Shown here in pieces: positions 2,822 through 9,231 of a DNA stretch of 28,243 bases (the stretch's first letter is position 1; every line of letters starts with the position of its first letter). Under the pieces are notes generated by a model, which was given only the letters and a program-made list of their open reading frames with translations, made no database searches and was not told where the DNA came from. Origin of the DNA: a virus (lineage: Duplodnaviria > Caudoviricetes); the IMG/VR virus record IMGVR_UViG_3300042297_000287, positions 1 to 28,243 of that record, one strand, 5' to 3'. Made by a program: the position numbers and the translations under genes.

Positions 2822-3085
2822 TTAAAGTGATTGATTTGTTAAAATTGTCCAGTCTATTTCATTCTCAGCAACAAGAGGCATGAGATTGTAACGGGTGATT
2901 TGTGGATATAACTCCATGTCAATGTCCTCTGGCTCAAATGTCCAGCCGTGGATCTCCATGTTATCCTCAGGGGAATGCGGCGACGTTTGCCCGTACAAGC
3001 CGAAGCCGTGGGAGAAAGTCACGTGTACAAAGTGACCCAGTTTTTTATCAAGGGTACATTTGCAGGTGTATTTTGTAATATTCAT
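2822..3085 (-). CDS. Hypothetical protein
   Basis: 87-aa ORF with leader AAAACTTACCAA-ATG. Confidence 0.7.
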   Translation of the reverse strand: MNITKYTCKCTLDKKLGHFVHVTFSHGFGLYGQTSPHSPEDNMEIHGWTFEPEDIDMELYPQITRYNLMPLVAENEIDWTILTNQSL

Positions 3086-3096
3086 TTGGTAAGTTT

Positions 3097-3372
3097 TTAA
3101 AGTCTTCTAAATTTTTTGTTTGTCAAATCTATTTTACCCAGCGCCTTGCTAAAGCCAAATGGAGTTTTGTAAATTTTCTTATTTAACCTTATCGTTGTTT
3201 TATACTCATTGTATATGCGGTTTAAAACAACGTCAATGTTTTCTATATCAACAATCGCCATATTATCATGATGCCAACCGTTTGTTTCGGTGTACCCATA
3301 ATAAAAGTCAACCAAGAAAACGCCTGATAATGCTTTGCGAAATTGAAACATGTCCTTAAATTCTTTTTTCAT
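3097..3372 (-). CDS. Hypothetical protein
   Basis: Start reassigned to ATG 3372 (MKKEFKDMF...) because it has nearly the same leader (AAAACTTACCAAA) as the next gene. Confidence 0.7.
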   Translation of the reverse strand: MKKEFKDMFQFRKALSGVFLVDFYYGYTETNGWHHDNMAIVDIENIDVVLNRIYNEYKTTIRLNKKIYKTPFGFSKALGKIDLTNKKFRRL

Positions 3373-3394
3373 TTTGGTAAGTTTTAAAAGGTGG

Positions 3395-3510
3395 AAAAAA
3401 AAATTGCCGTCTCTCCGAGCTGTCACTAATTTTTACGTCACGTTTCTGTTTTTAGCCTGTAACCAGGTATCTGCAAGTGTTTTCGACTTTCACGAAAGGC
3501 ATTAGTTCAC
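3395..3510 (-). ncRNA. Putative structured intergenic RNA ending in a terminator-like hairpin
   Basis: ACTAAT/ATTAGT outer stem enclosing TTTCG/CGAAA and CCTG/CAGG hairpins, then GACA-GCTCG-GAGAGA-CGGC-AA-T9. Confidence 0.4.
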
Positions 3511-3520
3511 CTATATTATT

Positions 3521-3739
3521 TTAATAACCTCTATTTAAAAGTTGGGTAATTCTTTTAGCAAAACCTCTTTCAGTATAAAATCTTACTACATCTTTTTTTA
3601 TTGAGAAAGTATATTTTCCTTCATAGTAAGTTATCATATTTATTCCATCCCTTGAAATTGCATACCAACCAGCAGTATCATTAGCCGCCCAAAATACATT
3701 TTTTTCGTTTCTTTCTAAATTAATTTCTAAAGTTGTCAT
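3521..3739 (-). CDS. Hypothetical protein
   Basis: 72-aa ORF with leader AACAAAAACAAACGATT-ATG. Confidence 0.7.
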   Translation of the reverse strand: MTTLEINLERNEKNVFWAANDTAGWYAISRDGINMITYYEGKYTFSIKKDVVRFYTERGFAKRITQLLNRGY

Positions 3740-3837
3740 AATCGTTTGTTTTTGTTGTGTGAAATATCGTTATGTTGTTTCAATACGTAAATTTAAATAT
3801 AATTATTTGAATAAAAAAATATTTACAAAAATAAATT

Positions 3838-3870
3838 AAAAAAAAGTGAGGCATAATTTCTATGCCCCAC
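3838..3870 (-). terminator. Rho-independent terminator of the replication operon
   Basis: Minus strand GTGGGGCATA-GAAAT-TATGCCTCAC-TTTTTTTT, 25 nt after the stop at 3895. Confidence 0.8.
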
Positions 3871-3894
3871 CAAAACAAAACCAAATTATGAAAC

Positions 3895-4629
3895 TTATCT
3901 TAGCAAAACCTTGCGCCATACGGCTAACTTGTAAGCAAGTGCGCGGGCTCTGGGCATATTTCCTTCTTCTATTTTCCTCATGTGGTTCTTGCGATCAATC
4001 ATATTATCTGAATCGGGCTTTTCCTGCTTTGCCATTTCCTGCGCTTCAAGCCACAAGGCTTCCTTTTCCCCTTCCTTCCATTCATTGATATAACCACGCT
4101 TAACACATTCGTCGTACCAAAATACGGGTATTTCATCGAGCGGCTTTTGAAAGTTTTTCAACTTATTATCAAAATCCTTGTCATATTCCTCAGCCACTTT
4201 CCCCAGGCGTTTAATGCGATCTTCTTCTTCTTTCTTTGCCTGCAAATCGGAATCCATGGCAAAGTAAATCTTTTGCCTCCATGTTATATAAGCGGTTAAT
4301 ATTCGCCCAATGGCATGAAGGTCAACTTTGCCGTATAATTTATGATCATTAATATCAAGCTCCTGCTTTGCAAACTTTTCAAAGGCGAGTTTAATCTCAT
4401 CAACGGCAAGTAATTTGTAATTTGAAATAAAGTCCGTTACCTCCATTAAATGCTCAGGCTTTGGCTCAATGCCATACACGGGGAGCAAGTGGCTCAGGGC
4501 TTGCGCAATCTTTGGTATCGCTTCCTTTGTACCCGTTTTAAAAATCCTGAGTTCGCGGTTCTGAATTACAAGTTGCACGTCTTGTATTTTCTCTTCCACG
4601 CGGTTTGCAATCATTGGTAAATTGTTCAT
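3895..4629 (-). CDS. Replication-associated protein (helicase-loader position, like lambda P)
   Basis: Directly downstream of the initiator. Helical 244-aa ORF with no ATPase motif seen. Function inferred from synteny only. Confidence 0.5.
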   Translation of the reverse strand: MNNLPMIANRVEEKIQDVQLVIQNRELRIFKTGTKEAIPKIAQALSHLLPVYGIEPKPEHLMEVTDFISNYKLLAVDEIKLAFEKFAKQELDINDHKLYGKVDLHAIGRILTAYITWRQKIYFAMDSDLQAKKEEEDRIKRLGKVAEEYDKDFDNKLKNFQKPLDEIPVFWYDECVKRGYINEWKEGEKEALWLEAQEMAKQEKPDSDNMIDRKNHMRKIEEGNMPRARALAYKLAVWRKVLLR

Positions 4630-4644
4630 AATTGGTTGTTTTTA

Positions 4645-5661
4645 TTAATCTTGAAACTTTGCCATGCGTTCGGCAAGCAATTCCTGAATCCTGTCATTAT
4701 ACGCCTTGTCCTTTGCGGCTGGGCTTGTCGTTTGGTAAGCGGTAAAAATCTTTGAGGCTTGTCCATAAAGGTTGCCCACCGTGAAATTTGCCCTCAGCCA
4801 TTTGTCATTCAAGTTCCATGCCGCCTGGATAAAAACCTTCAATGCCTCAAGGCTATTGCCATGCCTGTCGATTTTATCAATGTATTTCAGAAGATTTGCC
4901 ATTTGTCCCGCGTCTTTGGGCATCATGATATAATGTCCATTTTGGTCAGTTGGATACGCGGCACCGGATAACGATTCAAACGTTTGGCAAAACACGGAGA
5001 AGGCGGCGTAAGTGGGGGAGGGCTGGCGCTCGGCTTTCGGCTCGGCGGCTTTTTCTCTTTTCGTCGCAAAACTTTTCTCTTTTTCTAATTGTGTAATTAA
5101 AGTAAATGGATTAACCTTTTTACTTTGGTTAATTTCATTTTCAGTAATTTCAATTTTTTCAAAATGCGAAAATTCCGAAGGATTTTCAATAATATCTGAG
5201 TTAGTAAATGTATTTAGTACTTGGTTAGCAACTGGTATAGGTTCGCCTTTTCGTGAAAATCGATTTGCCCTTTTGGAAATATCCATTTGCCCATTTGGTA
5301 AAATGGTATTTCCCTTTTGGTCAAATCCATTATCTGGTAAATGAAAGTTATCTGAAAGGTATAAATCTTCGTTAACAAAGGCATACCAAATCGTTCTGTC
5401 GTAACCAATTTTATTATAATTACCTTTTATTAAAATACCTTTATCGACAAGGCTTTCAATAATCCTTCGCACTTGCTTTTCGCTCCAAAAGGTAAAATAC
5501 AAACCAAGTGACTTATTTGTATTATACGTCCAATACTTACCATCATTAAAATTATTTCCATTAGCCTTATTTAACCTTATCCAAAATTGGAAGGATTTTA
5601 TCATAATGGCTTCGTCAATACCGTAACGATTAGCAAATTCAACGTTAAATGAAAACTCCAT
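4645..5661 (-). CDS. Phage replication initiator / replisome organiser
   Basis: N-terminal FNVEFANRYGIDEAI...WI..NKAN...DGKYWTYNT...FWSEKQVRRII..L...GNYNK..YDRT.WY winged-helix signature, followed by an iteron-encoded linker. Confidence 0.85.
   Translation of the reverse strand: MEFSFNVEFANRYGIDEAIMIKSFQFWIRLNKANGNNFNDGKYWTYNTNKSLGLYFTFWSEKQVRRIIESLVDKGILIKGNYNKIGYDRTIWYAFVNEDLYLSDNFHLPDNGFDQKGNTILPNGQMDISKRANRFSRKGEPIPVANQVLNTFTNSDIIENPSEFSHFEKIEITENEINQSKKVNPFTLITQLEKEKSFATKREKAAEPKAERQPSPTYAAFSVFCQTFESLSGAAYPTDQNGHYIMMPKDAGQMANLLKYIDKIDRHGNSLEALKVFIQAAWNLNDKWLRANFTVGNLYGQASKIFTAYQTTSPAAKDKAYNDRIQELLAERMAKFQD
5241..5330. repeat. Iterons of the replication origin inside the initiator gene
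   Basis: Four imperfect 22-bp repeats: GTTCGCCTTTTCGTGAAAATCG, ATTTGCCCTTTTGGAAATATCC, ATTTGCCCATTTGGTAAAATGG, TATTTCCCTTTTGGTCAAATCC. CCC cores at 5268, 5290 and 5312. An AT-rich tract lies next to them (about 5075-5220). Confidence 0.75.
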
Positions 5662-5767
5662 AAGTTATAATAAAAAATGCCCAACGAGTAGGAGTTCATT
5701 GGGCAATGTGAACAATGCGGATATTGTCCCGAAGTTCTTTTGAATCGCTCCTACCTGATTCAAAAGA
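5662..5767 (-). ncRNA. Three-hairpin kissing-loop leader/attenuator, copy 1
   Basis: P1 TCTTTTGAATC/GATTCAAAAGA with loop AGGTAGGAGC. P2 GGACAAT/ATTGTTC. P3 TGCCCAATGA/TCGTTGGGCA with loop ACTCCTAC, then T6. GTAGGAG is complementary to CTCCTAC. Confidence 0.8.
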
Positions 5768-5769
5768 TT

Positions 5770-6264
5770 TTACAAATTTAACAAATTTTCTTTAGGTATT
5801 ACATTTAATTTTGCAAATTCGCCATGATATTTTTGAGCAGCCTGATTATAAGCACTGGCGGCGTCTTTCAGTTCAATGTAATAACCAATATGAATTTTTT
5901 TATTTTCGCATGATATTTGAGCAACCCATTTTTTATTTTTAATACACCAAGACACCCCATTAAAACCAGATTTATTAAATTTACTCATTTTCCTATTTTG
6001 ACTATTTTGCGCCTTAGTACAAATTCTTAAATTAATCTTTCTATTGTCTAATTTATTCCCATTAATGTGGTCGACAAACTCACCTTCTTTGGCTTTAATT
6101 ACCACTCTATGTAACTGAATTAATTTGTTTTCAGGTTTACTGGTTCTTATCGCATAGTAATTAGTATGAGATTTTAATAAATACCATTTCCATTGATTTA
6201 AATACTCAAAATCATCATCATCTACTATGGTAATTACACCCTGATTAAGTTGTATTTCTTTCAT
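5770..6264 (-). CDS. HNH homing endonuclease with C-terminal AP2 domain
   Basis: LHRVV...VDHINGNKLDNRKINLR...QN (HNH) plus SGFNGVSW...KWVAQI...HIGYY...AASAYNQAA..YHGEFA (AP2). Confidence 0.92.
   Translation of the reverse strand: MKEIQLNQGVITIVDDDDFEYLNQWKWYLLKSHTNYYAIRTSKPENKLIQLHRVVIKAKEGEFVDHINGNKLDNRKINLRICTKAQNSQNRKMSKFNKSGFNGVSWCIKNKKWVAQISCENKKIHIGYYIELKDAASAYNQAAQKYHGEFAKLNVIPKENLLNL
5773..5780 (-). promoter_or_regulatory. Bacteroidota sigma-70 -7 box (TAAATTTG)
   Basis: Matches TAnnTTTG, 5 nt upstream of P1 of leader copy 1, within the last codons of the HNH gene. No well-spaced -33 box seen. Confidence 0.65.
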
Positions 6265-6267
6265 GAG

Positions 6268-7011
6268 TTAAAAATTTAAAACAAGCATTTCGCTTGTTAT
6301 TCTATCTTTAGCAATTTTAAAATATTTTTCATCTATCTCAATGCCTATAAATTTTCTGTTATGTCTTACACATGATAAACCCGTTGTTCCGCTCCCCATA
6401 AATGGGTCAATTATAATATAATCCTCAGGAATAATTCCTATTATATTGTCCATAACCTTCAGGGGCATCTGACATGGGTGTTCAGTTTTTTCAGCACTTA
6501 CATTTTTGACTTGATTAATTTCCCACCAATCATATAATTTAGCTGATTTACCTTCTTGAATGCGCTTAGCAATTCTTTTGTCTGTTGGATTCTTATAATC
6601 TTGAGCTACTTTTTTGAAATCTGGCTTAAAACCAAAAAAAGCTATATCCCTATGTTGTTTTCCTGTATTGCTATTGTAAACCCAGCTTACAACTTTATCA
6701 GGAAACATACCAATATTGTAACTATGTTTATATAAGTTTTCTGGATAGTGAATAATAACTTGCTTGTTTGAGCCAAAAATATTGGAAAGCCAGTTATAAT
6801 AATCATCTTCTTTCATTTTGTCAGAATAATTATTGTAATGATAACCAATATTAAATGGGGGGTCAGAAACAAATATTACCTTATTAAAATCAATGTCTAA
6901 TTTAGGTAATATAATATTATTATCTCCACGATATATTTCTATTTCATGTTCCCTATTTAACCCATGGGATAAACAAAATTTAGAATAAGCAACTTCTTTT
7001 AATATTTTCAT
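6268..7011 (-). CDS. DNA methyltransferase, N6-A/N4-C type, beta-class motif order
   Basis: Motif IV SDPPF, then HPCQMP, then motif I DPFMGSGTT and FIGIEID. Confidence 0.9.
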   Translation of the reverse strand: MKILKEVAYSKFCLSHGLNREHEIEIYRGDNNIILPKLDIDFNKVIFVSDPPFNIGYHYNNYSDKMKEDDYYNWLSNIFGSNKQVIIHYPENLYKHSYNIGMFPDKVVSWVYNSNTGKQHRDIAFFGFKPDFKKVAQDYKNPTDKRIAKRIQEGKSAKLYDWWEINQVKNVSAEKTEHPCQMPLKVMDNIIGIIPEDYIIIDPFMGSGTTGLSCVRHNRKFIGIEIDEKYFKIAKDRITSEMLVLNF

Positions 7012-7119
7012 AAGTTATAAAATAAAAATTGCCCAAAAGGCACTACTCTTCTGGGCAAAAGTGAAACAATTTTAGTTGTTCCAAATACCTTTTGCTGGGT
7101 AGTGCGTCCTGCAAAAAGT
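7012..7119 (-). ncRNA. Three-hairpin kissing-loop leader/attenuator, copy 2
   Basis: P1 ACTTTTTGCAGG/CCAGCAAAAGGT (one A-A mismatch) with loop ACGCACTAC. P2 GGAACAA/TTGTTTC. P3 TTGCCCAGAAG/CTTTTGGGCAA with loop AGTAGTGC, then a T-tract. GCACTAC is complementary to GTAGTGC. Confidence 0.8.
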
Positions 7120-7124
7120 TTAAG

Positions 7125-7132
7125 CAAATATA
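7125..7132 (-). promoter_or_regulatory. Bacteroidota sigma-70 -7 box (TATATTTG)
   Basis: Matches TAnnTTTG, 5 nt upstream of P1 of leader copy 2, the same spacing as copy 1. Confidence 0.65.
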
Positions 7133-7150
7133 CAAAATTTCCCTTAGATA

Positions 7151-7564
7151 TTACTCAGTTTCATTAAATTTCATCATTAAAGGCAAATCCCAAACTAAAG
7201 AAAAAGCAATGATTTCTCCTTCTGGTGGAGCATACATATAATTCTTTGTTTCATCGCAATATCTAAATTCATAAATAGGTTCTGGAATATTATCTCTTTC
7301 GATATAAATACCTGTTGCAAATTGTAAAGTGTTTTCATCTTCTGATTCATGCTTTATCAATAACATTAAATCAACCATATCGCGCTGCAAATCTTCAGAT
7401 TTTGACAAATAATAAGCGTCAGTAACTGTGGTAGTTTTTGGGTCATACCAAATAATGTCATGTCTATAAACTTTGTGTTTGTTTACGACTTTAAGTTCTT
7501 CACCATATTTCCCTCCATGAATGATTAGTTCATCGTTCCAAATTTCATTCTCGTTAATTTTCAT
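7151..7564 (-). CDS. Hypothetical protein
   Basis: 137-aa ORF with no recognised motif. Confidence 0.7.
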   Translation of the reverse strand: MKINENEIWNDELIIHGGKYGEELKVVNKHKVYRHDIIWYDPKTTTVTDAYYLSKSEDLQRDMVDLMLLIKHESEDENTLQFATGIYIERDNIPEPIYEFRYCDETKNYMYAPPEGEIIAFSLVWDLPLMMKFNETE

Positions 7565-7565
7565 A

Positions 7566-7700
7566 TTATTTTGTTTTTGTTTTTCTTTTTTTCCACGGCG
7601 GATTCCCCACGGCGCTTTGCATTTCCATGTATTTTACCACGGCTGGCGGCGTTTCGTATGTCAAAACCTTGTCCAGGGCTGCTTTAATGAAATTTGCCAT
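7566..7700 (-). CDS. Small hypothetical protein (44 aa)
   Basis: Below the track cutoff. MANFIKAALDKVLTYETPPAVVKYMEMQSAVGNPPWKKRKTKTK fills the gap between its neighbours almost exactly. Confidence 0.55.
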   Translation of the reverse strand: MANFIKAALDKVLTYETPPAVVKYMEMQSAVGNPPWKKRKTKTK

Positions 7701-7705
7701 GTGCT

Positions 7706-8560
7706 TTACTTTTTTATAAAGTGATTTTTTACAAGTTCAACAAATTGGGAGCATTGAGTATATGTGTTTTGTTCCATTGTTTTAAGATCGTCAATCATTT
7801 TACCTTGAGTTAATTTTGCAAAATCAATATTTTCAAAGCCATAAGCAACTCCGTATTTTTGAACATTGTAAAATTCTTCCTTTGATAAATCTTCGGAAGG
7901 TATTACGATGCTTTGGCAGCCGCAAAGAGCAGCCATTGTACTGTGATATGTATGTGGGTCGAAACTTATAAATAAAGTAATTTGATTATAAATTTCAGCC
8001 AGTTCATTTAAATTATTACATTTATCAATAATCTCGTCAATGCTAATAATCGGTAAATTAATCAAGTGTTTGTAACTCTTTAAAACATTCATTTTATAAT
8101 CAAAATCTTTGCATTTCCTTACAAGCAATCCTATTTTATCCCTTTGTTGACCAGTGTTCTGCATGATGCTTAACTTAGGATCGAGAACGGTAAGTATAAA
8201 AGATTTATCGTATTTCGTATTTCTTACAAATTCGTGGTTATATGTAATTACAAGTTCACTTTCGTTATACTCCTTATCTCCAGCGTGCCATCCTGGGTAA
8301 TACAAAACATACCTCACCACATTTTTAGCGTTAAATGGATTACCAGTTATAACCTCAGGATAAATGGTAATGGTATCATTCAACGCTGCAAGTTCTTTCG
8401 CCTTGTCAAAATTTACACAAATAGCCTTTGAATCAATCAAGGTTTTATTTGCGCAAACATAAGTTGTATAATCCTTAGACAATATTTTAGCCAAGTCATG
8501 CAAAACTTGATTCCCTCCAGACTTCCAGTCATAATCAAATGAAAAAATTAAAAATGTCAT
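7706..8560 (-). CDS. Putative glycosyltransferase (WavQ-like / GT-B-like)
   Basis: Start reassigned to ATG 8560 (MTFLIFSFDY...). SGGNQVLHDL, IYPEVITGNPFNAKNVVRYVL and FISFDPHTYHSTMAALCGCQSIVIP motifs. Confidence 0.7.
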   Translation of the reverse strand: MTFLIFSFDYDWKSGGNQVLHDLAKILSKDYTTYVCANKTLIDSKAICVNFDKAKELAALNDTITIYPEVITGNPFNAKNVVRYVLYYPGWHAGDKEYNESELVITYNHEFVRNTKYDKSFILTVLDPKLSIMQNTGQQRDKIGLLVRKCKDFDYKMNVLKSYKHLINLPIISIDEIIDKCNNLNELAEIYNQITLFISFDPHTYHSTMAALCGCQSIVIPSEDLSKEEFYNVQKYGVAYGFENIDFAKLTQGKMIDDLKTMEQNTYTQCSQFVELVKNHFIKK

Positions 8561-8573
8561 TTGCTTTGTTTTG

Positions 8574-8695
8574 TAACAAGGGCGGGAATCGAACCCGCGA
8601 CACACTCGCTTGACACCCTACACACCTCATACTTTCGTATGGAACGGACTCGAACCGTTGTCGCCAGTTGCTCTACCCAGCTGAGCTACCTTGTT
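8574..8695 (-). tRNA. tRNA-like RNA with the anticodon loop replaced by a structured insert of about 50 nt
   Basis: Perfect acceptor AACAAGG/CCTTGTT, D arm GCTC-AGCTGGGTA-GAGC and T arm GCGGG-TTCGATT-CCCGC. 122 nt long, no encoded CCA. Confidence 0.75.
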
Positions 8696-8700
8696 AAACC

Positions 8701-8769
8701 TGCAAGTGAAGGAATCTAATCTTCGTCTTTTTGCCGTCGCAAAACATTTTAACATTAAACTAACTTGCG
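8701..8769 (-). tRNA. Degenerate tRNA-like element
   Basis: GCAAGT/ACTTGC acceptor, TAGTTTAATGTTAAAAT D-arm-like segment, TTTTGC-GACG-GCAAAA hairpin in place of a 7-nt anticodon loop, and GAAGA-TTAGATT-CCTTC T-arm-like segment. Confidence 0.55.
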
Positions 8770-8772
8770 CCA

Positions 8773-8836
8773 CAAAGATATAAAAATATTCTTAAAAAAT
8801 ATTTTAAATTTGATAACAAATAAAATATTATCTTTG
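8773..8836. promoter_or_regulatory. Divergent promoter region
   Basis: TATCTTTG on the minus strand (8780-8773) and on the plus strand (8829-8836), at the point where gene orientation flips. AAAATATT occurs three times in this interval. Confidence 0.75.
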
Positions 8837-8853
8837 CAGAAAGAAAAAATAAA

Positions 8854-9231
8854 ATGATAAAATTAATAGTTGCAGGTCGCATTGGTCAGGATGCTGAAAT
8901 TAAGTCCGTTGGAGATACAACCGTTTGTTCTTTCTCCGTGGCTCATACGGAAAAGACATTTGGAAACAATCCCACGGAAAAGACGGTTTGGGTCACTTGC
9001 TCAATGTGGGGTGAACGTGGTTCCAAACTTGCGCCACACTTGGTAAAAGGTACGTATGTCGTGGTCGAAGGAACAGGCGGCGTGAATGCTTACATGAAAA
9101 ACGGAGAACCGACGGGAATCATTCGTTGCATGGTAAACAACATCGAGTTTGGAGGCAAGGCAACGGCTGGGGAGAACAACCCAAAGATGACAGATGAAAC
9201 AACAGTTAAAGACGAATCACTCCCATTTTAA
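8854..9231 (+). CDS. ssb: Single-stranded DNA-binding protein
   Basis: AGRIGQDAE...FSVA...T.WV.C..WG....LA..L.KG..V.VEG OB-fold pattern and an acidic LPF C-terminus. Confidence 0.93.
   Translation: MIKLIVAGRIGQDAEIKSVGDTTVCSFSVAHTEKTFGNNPTEKTVWVTCSMWGERGSKLAPHLVKGTYVVVEGTGGVNAYMKNGEPTGIIRCMVNNIEFGGKATAGENNPKMTDETTVKDESLPF

Follow-up and report, generated by a model that had tools for sequence, protein, structure and literature searches.

What does a phage leader do whose first hairpin carries, in its loop, the exact complement of the loop of its own predicted terminator? The question is raised by the minus-strand replication region of a 28,243-base virus record (this whole stretch is hereafter called the window), the source of which we read as an uncultured freshwater phage. 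The original prediction, made from the letters alone, held that two minus-strand elements in this region share one architecture, that the loops within each copy are complementary over 7 nt, and that the elements stand before a replication initiator and a methyltransferase. We recovered all of these features in place, with the two copies heading the genes that start with the ATGs at 5661 and 7011.

The two elements in the window

Each element consists of a TAnnTTTG promoter box, two hairpins, P1 and P2, and a predicted intrinsic terminator, P3 (Table 1). In both copies the box is separated from P1 by 5 nt, and P3 is followed by a T tract (T6 in copy 1 and T5 in copy 2), beyond which lie TTATAACTT and the ATG of the initiator or of the methyltransferase gene, respectively. 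In the accessible text of a study on Flavobacterium the TAnnTTTG box occupies -12 to -5 (PMC9723704), and this spacing places the +1 of both copies one base ahead of P1, with predicted terminated RNAs of about 97-99 nt. TAnnTTTG by itself is frequent, with 44 sites in the window, and the box carries weight because its spacing is fixed in the relatives (24-27 nt from the box to the P1 code in 56/56 elements).

The minimum-energy fold of both copies comprises the three hairpins (-32.4 and -33.4 kcal/mol for copies 1 and 2), and none of 200 shuffled sequences was equally stable (z -4.80 and -5.00). Over spans of 117 nt the minus strand folds better than the plus strand, with z-scores of -4.45 versus -3.00 in one copy and -3.95 versus -2.33 in the other. 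A scan of 3000-9000 detected 7 terminator-like sites, the two P3 hairpins included, against 3.5 expected. The P1 loop (code a) and the terminator loop (code a') of the same copy form 7 Watson-Crick pairs, as against 2 across copies. A 7-base match would arise between random 10- and 8-nt loops with a probability of 0.0004-0.0008 per copy, and with the terminator loop shuffled at fixed composition with a probability of 0.014 and 0.003. Each of the four 7-mers has one partner only, with no other target elsewhere in the 28-kb window. Contigs from the lake DNA runs X1 and X2 span both elements without a single differing letter, and the presence of both copies unchanged in independent DNA runs excludes an assembly error.

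Table 1. Positions of the leader elements and adjoining genes in the window
Feature	Position	Strand	Basis and remarks
Copy 1 promoter box TAAATTTG, Bacteroidota sigma-A -7	5773..5780	-	Sequence; lies in the final codons of the HNH gene; predicted +1 5768
Copy 1 hairpin P1	5736..5767	-	Fold; loop code a GTAGGAG at 5754-5748
Copy 1 hairpin P2	5710..5729	-	Fold; spacer stem, variable loop
Copy 1 predicted intrinsic terminator	5672..5705	-	Fold, terminator scan; P3 5705-5678, U tract 5677-5672; loop code a' CTCCTAC at 5694-5688
Copy 2 promoter box TATATTTG, sigma-A -7	7125..7132	-	Sequence; predicted +1 7120
Copy 2 hairpin P1	7087..7119	-	Fold; loop code a GCACTAC at 7105-7099
Copy 2 hairpin P2	7062..7083	-	Fold
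Copy 2 predicted intrinsic terminator	7024..7058	-	Fold, terminator scan; P3 7058-7029, U tract 7028-7024; loop code a' GTAGTGC at 7046-7040
Replication initiator gene, 338 aa	4645..5661	-	phrog_11233, E 5.5e-31; phrog_678 O-like, E 1.8e-10
Four 22-nt repeat units, family D1, within initiator gene	5242..5329		Repeat search
HNH-AP2 endonuclease gene, second in the cassette between both leaders	5770..6264	-	PF13392, PF00847; phrog_99
N6/N4 DNA methyltransferase gene, immediately following copy 2	6268..7011	-	PF01555, E 3.2e-25

The plus strand of the window encodes an SSB, a terminase and likely structural genes. Its DNA is seen mainly in lake metagenomes, and among cultured phages the terminase is closest to those of Riemerella phages (46%). 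The RNA runs X15, X16, X17 and X20 contain only contigs of relatives, each making up a small share. From the promoter type, the terminase matches and the occurrence of the DNA we infer a Bacteroidota host. A scan of GTDB recovered one locus only (L269), a 43-kb contig of the window's phage family in a bin labeled Pseudomonadota, which we take as a likely mis-bin because it conflicts with the Bacteroidota promoter and the matches to Riemerella phage terminases. The initiator gene, directly behind copy 1, gave no match in Pfam. The repeats within it are, presumably, origin iterons by their likeness to those of lambda O, which would make the origin separate from the leader.

Several further features of the region deserve record in their own right. 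In the initiator genes of relatives (L001-L066) the C-terminal half is kept, and the N-terminal starts are several and unrelated. A terminator-like hairpin at 3845-3871 (-) ends the initiator operon behind a 244-aa gene, and a TAnnTTTG site then follows at 3833. Divergent TAnnTTTG sites are found at 8780 (-), ahead of tRNA-like genes, and at 8805 and 8829 (+), ahead of the SSB gene; the kissing leader is absent at these sites (8780-8830). One of the tRNA-like genes (8574-8695, minus strand; Rfam RF00005, 45.1 bits) has an anticodon arm enlarged by about 50 bases and is not called by ARAGORN; similar matches occur at L038:74-195 and L022:540-626. The second tRNA-like element (8700-8769, minus strand; 40.5 bits) has an anticodon arm that closes in a 4-nt loop.

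A leader family with covarying loops

We fetched 68 viral loci by searches with the initiator and 80 by searches with the methyltransferase. An unfiltered reading of the DNA upstream of the initiator revealed the leader with several other loop pairs. At the nucleotide level, a blastn search of 50,697 phage records with copy 1 returned nothing beyond matches of 20-27 nt. A descriptor scan yielded an alignment (A2) of 43 sequences, from which matches lacking the promoter-P1-P2 layout and reverse-strand duplicates had been left out. In A2 each of the 7/7 loop pairs varies on both sides and 98.3% of 301 cells are paired (0/500 shuffles), a figure that is partly circular because A2 was picked for complementarity. 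The stems are paired to 92.4% (P1), 99.2% (P2) and 92.3% (P3) over the 43 sequences. G-U pairs account for 2/301 cells of the loop pairing and are frequent in the stems, for instance in 13/43 and 10/43 sequences at single positions. Invariant columns number 17 of 116.

The original prediction had claimed natural covariation of the loops and proposed a covariance-model search, which we carried out with a model (R1) built without the pseudoknot and run on 361 sources, with partial coverage of L193-L268 and L406-L477. The element set was defined as the strong sense-strand R1 hits plus those in L130, L354 and L396, with weak reverse-strand echoes dropped. It comprises 97 distinct elements in related phage DNA, of which 94 keep at least 7 contiguous Watson-Crick loop pairs; the remaining three are in L074 and L396 (6 pairs each) and L354 (3 pairs). 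The last two are distant forms in their own right: L354:328-427 has two hairpins and a match that is broken and bulged, and L396:5148-5258 is found ahead of a different gene. Among the elements outside the training set 51/54 keep at least 7 pairs, and six of them have codes unseen in training. When the P1 loop of one element was cross-matched with the P3 loop of another, 323 of 3192 combinations (10%) passed. The 94 elements use 22 different 7-letter codes, which require at least 30 pair changes, and one code is shared by 17 elements. A looser pattern scan of viral contigs, which returned mostly chance matches and served as a background set, reached 7 pairs in 14/109 of the matches listed, 12 of these having the family layout. 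Both the covariation and the complementarity thus hold across the family, and we conclude from these comparisons of sequence that the element is a real conserved leader family with a covarying loop-loop match.

The code is exchanged readily against the rest of the element. Scaffolds that are 93-96% identical can differ in one or two code pairs, and ten P2 types are common to different codes, with 93/94 core elements still having matched loops; mismatched recombinants are absent. That P2 has been swapped between codes and the loops still match suggests that the match within a single element is maintained by selection. Diversifying selection on the code itself was considered and gave a mixed result, the close pairs showing code versus scaffold divergence of 0.05 versus 0.05 and 0.08 versus 0.15.

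The geometry of the pairing is similarly constrained. It mostly ends at 7 pairs, the next pair being Watson-Crick in 9/56 and 7/56 elements on the two sides and the flanking positions being unpaired in 31/43 and 37/40. The kiss duplex has an energy of -9.3 +/- 1.0 kcal/mol over the codes, the terminator a' loop is 8 nt long in 86/93 elements, and the unpaired linkers joining P1, P2 and P3 measure only 6 +/- 1.5 nt. A G+C-rich hairpin followed by a U tract, with 6-8 U in the first 8 nt, occurs in 56/56 elements, and the predicted terminator hairpin has a mean energy of -15.1 kcal/mol.

Genomic position and the origin of the second copy

Of the initiator loci for which upstream sequence of 2.8 kb or more is available, 51/53 have the leader within 3 kb upstream. 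The two initiator loci without a leader are distant matches; L067 and L068 lack it. The U tract is followed by the ATG after 11-31 nt. In phages with a single copy the leader heads an operon in which methyltransferase, ParB-like, HNH or helicase genes precede the initiator. The gene that comes first after the leader varies freely, the flanks are often shuffled and none of the downstream genes is metabolic. In L006 the same 137-aa upstream gene is followed directly by the leader and the initiator, and this arrangement implies that the second copy of the window belongs to an inserted leader-methyltransferase-HNH cassette. The two copies in the window would thus represent a cassette inserted ahead of the initiator's own leader, rather than a demonstrated designed pair.

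Five complete relatives have 1, 1, 1, 1 and 2 copies as detected by the model, all ahead of replication genes. Domain searches in these genomes recovered tyrosine integrase (PF00589), serine recombinase (PF07508), S24 (PF00717) and ParA (PF13614) domains in 0/5, although divergent forms could escape such searches, and likewise a NusG-family gene in 0/5. Among sixteen distinct two-copy combinations the codes are never identical (16/16), which would happen by chance with P of about 0.26, and identical copies would also be lost through recombination. The proposal that the code keeps the two copies orthogonal finds no support in these figures, with four of the five complete relatives having a single copy.

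Cultured phages with the same design

Leaders of the same design are present in cultured phages. Ahead of its replication operon, Flavobacterium phage elemoF_6-3D has the box, a P1 that carries GTGGAGG and a terminator that carries CCTCCAC; elemoA_7-9A has the code TGAGAGC, elemoA_13-1A the code GTGAGATG and Olleya phage Harreka_1 the code GTGGTGG, in each case with the complement in the terminator. Taken alone, each of these leaders (elemo and Harreka) has a shuffle P of 0.014-0.051; chance would be unlikely to put four different codes at this one position. The elemo isolates of one host strain alone carry three codes. The leaders of elemo (Elemovirus) and Harreka lack P2 and have a long unpaired linker instead, and they are missed by model R1; the likeness to the window family is one of design only. 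In elemoF and Harreka, a' exactly fills a 7-nt loop that is closed by a 3-bp stem. An internal loop lies below this mini-stem (L276:1507-1610 and L270:3682-3790, from Harreka and elemoF, respectively), which we take to resemble a loop E motif. Isolates including Harreka are termed lytic in the accessible text of PMC8776804. Bacteroides phage Barc2635 and Riemerella phage RAP44 have no such leader at their replication genes, and the regions examined in tant8-1 and P2559S gave no R1 match. As cultured Elemovirus phages and Harreka carry the design with natural alternative codes, the element is now testable.

A proposed mechanism and its alternatives

The distance between U tract and ATG appears to leave no room for a promoter, and the operon would consequently be reached via read-through. 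We tentatively propose, with a confidence that falls somewhat short of an even chance, that the leader is an attenuator: P1 would capture the terminator loop on its emergence, and a fraction of the polymerases would read through. Under this model a leader of about 97 nt would be transcribed from the host-type promoter, and the P1 loop would grab the 7-base terminator loop as the RNA leaves RNA polymerase. Capture would delay the stop hairpin P3, with the result that some transcripts continue into the replication genes, and P2 would act as a spacer that sets the timing. More speculatively, finished short RNAs might base-pair with newly made transcripts at the P1 loop and promote the stop, amounting to negative feedback on replication. 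For this attenuator we infer transcription and termination of the leader, a pairing that lowers rather than raises termination, and the spacer role of P2.

Folding of truncated transcripts is consistent with such a capture: the a:a' pairing beats nested folds in 31, 40 and 39 of 56 elements when 0, 2 and 4 nt, respectively, lie beyond a', and is dominant in 0/56 with 10 nt exposed. RNA polymerase covers about 14 nt of nascent RNA, and the a:a' pairing window would accordingly coincide with the U tract. By a rough geometric estimate the linkers span about 65 A, where a kiss at angles of 120-180 degrees would take about 73-84 A; the short linkers thus make the cis kiss tight, and a captured loop could hinder the closing of P3. 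This steric argument does not carry over to the cultured phages, which have a long linker in place of P2. A precedent is the ZTP riboswitch, in which, according to the accessible text, a pseudoknotted fold blocks terminator nucleation within a window of 7-15 nt (10.1101/521930). Against the attenuator counts the equilibrium, as computed with a folding program that cannot model pseudoknots, which favors the terminator by 11.1 +/- 3.3 kcal/mol over folds lacking it. A longer antiterminator helix was also considered and rejected: it is present in copy 2 (-24.5 versus -33.1), but its flanks are not conserved.

The same stability of the terminator favors the best-surviving alternative, in our estimate an unlikely one, in which the loop contact is made once the terminator has folded and either reinforces termination or fixes the short RNA in a compact shape, read-through being left to leakiness or to a host or phage protein that recognizes this shape or melts it. 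A kiss made while the terminator is folded, which could favor termination, is suggested by the exact size of the a' loop, by the rarity of pairing beyond 7 bases and by the mini-stem on which elemoF and Harreka carry a' as a 7-nt loop; in the lysine riboswitch, too, a loop-loop contact supports termination, as stated in the accessible text of PMC3082890. However, the short linkers tighten a cis kiss of three intact helices, none of the five complete relatives has a NusG-family gene, and the first downstream gene varies freely.

Less probable is a reading in which the leader is an RNA counter of lytic phages that addresses itself: the terminated leader would accumulate with genome copies, its terminator loop would dock with nascent P1 and shut the replication operon, and the code would be an incompatibility address, altered again and again as co-infecting Bacteroidota phages evade each other. 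The address could also point outward, a possibility that we regard as more doubtful again, with the leader acting in trans as a small RNA similar to P4 CI and the code serving to exclude co-infecting phages that share it, or to give immunity against them, by shutting down their replication operon. The diversity of the codes, the near-identical scaffolds with one or two code pairs changed, the three codes in elemo isolates of one host strain, the loose contig ends with other codes in one sample and the absence of repeated codes in two-copy phages would all fit such an exclusion RNA. The last of these is nevertheless compatible with chance, as given above, and one code is shared by 17 elements; the divergence of the code is not clearly faster than that of the scaffold in close pairs, integrase, recombinase, repressor and ParA are absent from the five complete relatives, and the four 7-mers have no other sites in the window.

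The phi29 pRNA self-assembles through loop-loop pairs between molecules, and a similar self-assembly of the leader into a structural or protein-binding particle, with its position at replication genes being secondary, would accord with both predicted RNA ends lying within hairpins and with the sterically tight cis kiss. We consider it very improbable, as the element is always found at the front of a single operon and directly ahead of a start codon, few letters are invariant and the terminase genes are located elsewhere. A ligand-sensing riboswitch, whose architecture of a 5' leader with a pseudoknot and a terminator is the one seen here, is harder still to credit in the face of the absence of a conserved unpaired core (all 7 kiss pairs, the P2 loop and the linkers vary), the lack of an Rfam match and the non-metabolic downstream genes. 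The least likely reading is a DNA-level structure (a cruciform, a single-strand origin, or a recombination or endonuclease site), suggested by inverted repeats that adjoin the initiator and HNH genes amid frequently shuffled flanks, and opposed by the many G-U pairs that the stems tolerate, the fixed promoter-box distance, the one-sided T tract and the likely iterons within the initiator gene.

Relationship to known regulatory RNAs

The element had originally been recognized as no named family, and Rfam 15 bears this out, with no match at E<=1 over either window element and, in 10 related loci, one weak overlap only (STnc310, 26.8 bits against a threshold of 40, E 0.82). The attenuator proposed here has its closest counterpart in the CI RNA of phage P4, with its seqA and seqC targets, and its homolog IsrK of Gifsy-1, which the accessible text of PMC4825925 describes as leader RNAs of the replication operon for which premature termination is the likely control. 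As far as that text goes, the likeness extends to a short terminated RNA (predicted in our case) that derives from a phage's replication-operon leader, to pairing between parts of the same leader and to premature termination as the likely control. In contrast to CI, as described there, the pairing segments are here two 7-nt stretches that are both hairpin loops, one being the terminator's own; CI is processed and has targets to either side of it, whereas each 7-mer here has one partner. Moreover, the five complete relatives lack lysogeny genes and Rfam reports no match. By analogy, the leader would work most like the control of replication genes by P4 CI and IsrK, yet it does not belong to that group. 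The analogy with P4 and P1 immunity in the original prediction is thereby retained for leader control and weakened for immunity itself, the absence of integrase, serine recombinase and S24 repressor domains from the five complete relatives arguing against immunity of the P4 type.

With the ZTP (pfl) riboswitch, as portrayed in the accessible source, the family shares a pseudoknot that is possible just before terminator nucleation and read-through decided in a short window. Unlike that riboswitch it has no conserved ligand pocket, its paired letters are freely exchanged, and the partner is the loop rather than a stem strand of the terminator, which need not displace the pairing. The L2-L3 contact of the lysine riboswitch is an intramolecular loop-loop helix that affects termination (PMC3082890), as is predicted for the kiss of the family; in the accessible description that contact belongs to the ligand-binding domain and needs a kink-turn, and none is evident in P1 of the family.

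Plasmid replication control offers a second group of parallels. An antisense promoter of TAnnTTTG type on the opposite strand near the end of the element was found in only 2/57 elements. RNA-based control of plasmid replication includes the IncI/IncB repZ pseudoknot with antisense Inc RNA, antisense attenuation in pT181 and pIP501, and RNAI/RNAII of ColE1; a kissing loop that affects termination is also known within the ligand-binding domain of the cobalamin riboswitch. As in the plasmid rep leaders, the leader precedes an initiator gene and has loop pairing, and the loop letters could be an incompatibility code. Unlike them, both partners lie on one strand, the host replicon is a tailed phage and the pairing lies off the translation start. 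The earlier comparison with IncI/IncB therefore stands for the loop-paired initiator leader and is weakened by an antisense promoter that is not conserved and by a pairing without reach to the translation start.

A kissing-loop leader is undescribed in the literature searched, most subscription journals being outside its scope, including the accessible parts of PMC5737381, PMC10690425 and PMC7430163. Short motifs of the leader are absent from the accessible tables of candidate viral structured RNAs in PMC10690425, whose first sheet lacks sequences, and the alignments of that study may hold the leader unannotated. The leader family is thus likely to be uncatalogued, and would represent RNA-based attenuation of phage replication genes, with the mechanism offered as a proposal drawn from sequence.

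Implications

Little is known of how Bacteroidota phages time and limit the expression of their replication genes. The leader is compact and its natural covariation is unusually clean: 22 codes are matched, P2 has been swapped and mismatched forms are nearly absent. It raises the question of how nucleation of the terminator hairpin is affected by a loop-loop contact made with the hairpin's own loop. If the reading as an RNA counter is true, the family would define a sense-strand, protein-free and ligand-free class of attenuators across unrelated phage families. If the RNA also acts in trans, it would be a phage counterpart of plasmid incompatibility, and its codes would constitute a ready set of orthogonal RNA switches for engineering in Bacteroidota.
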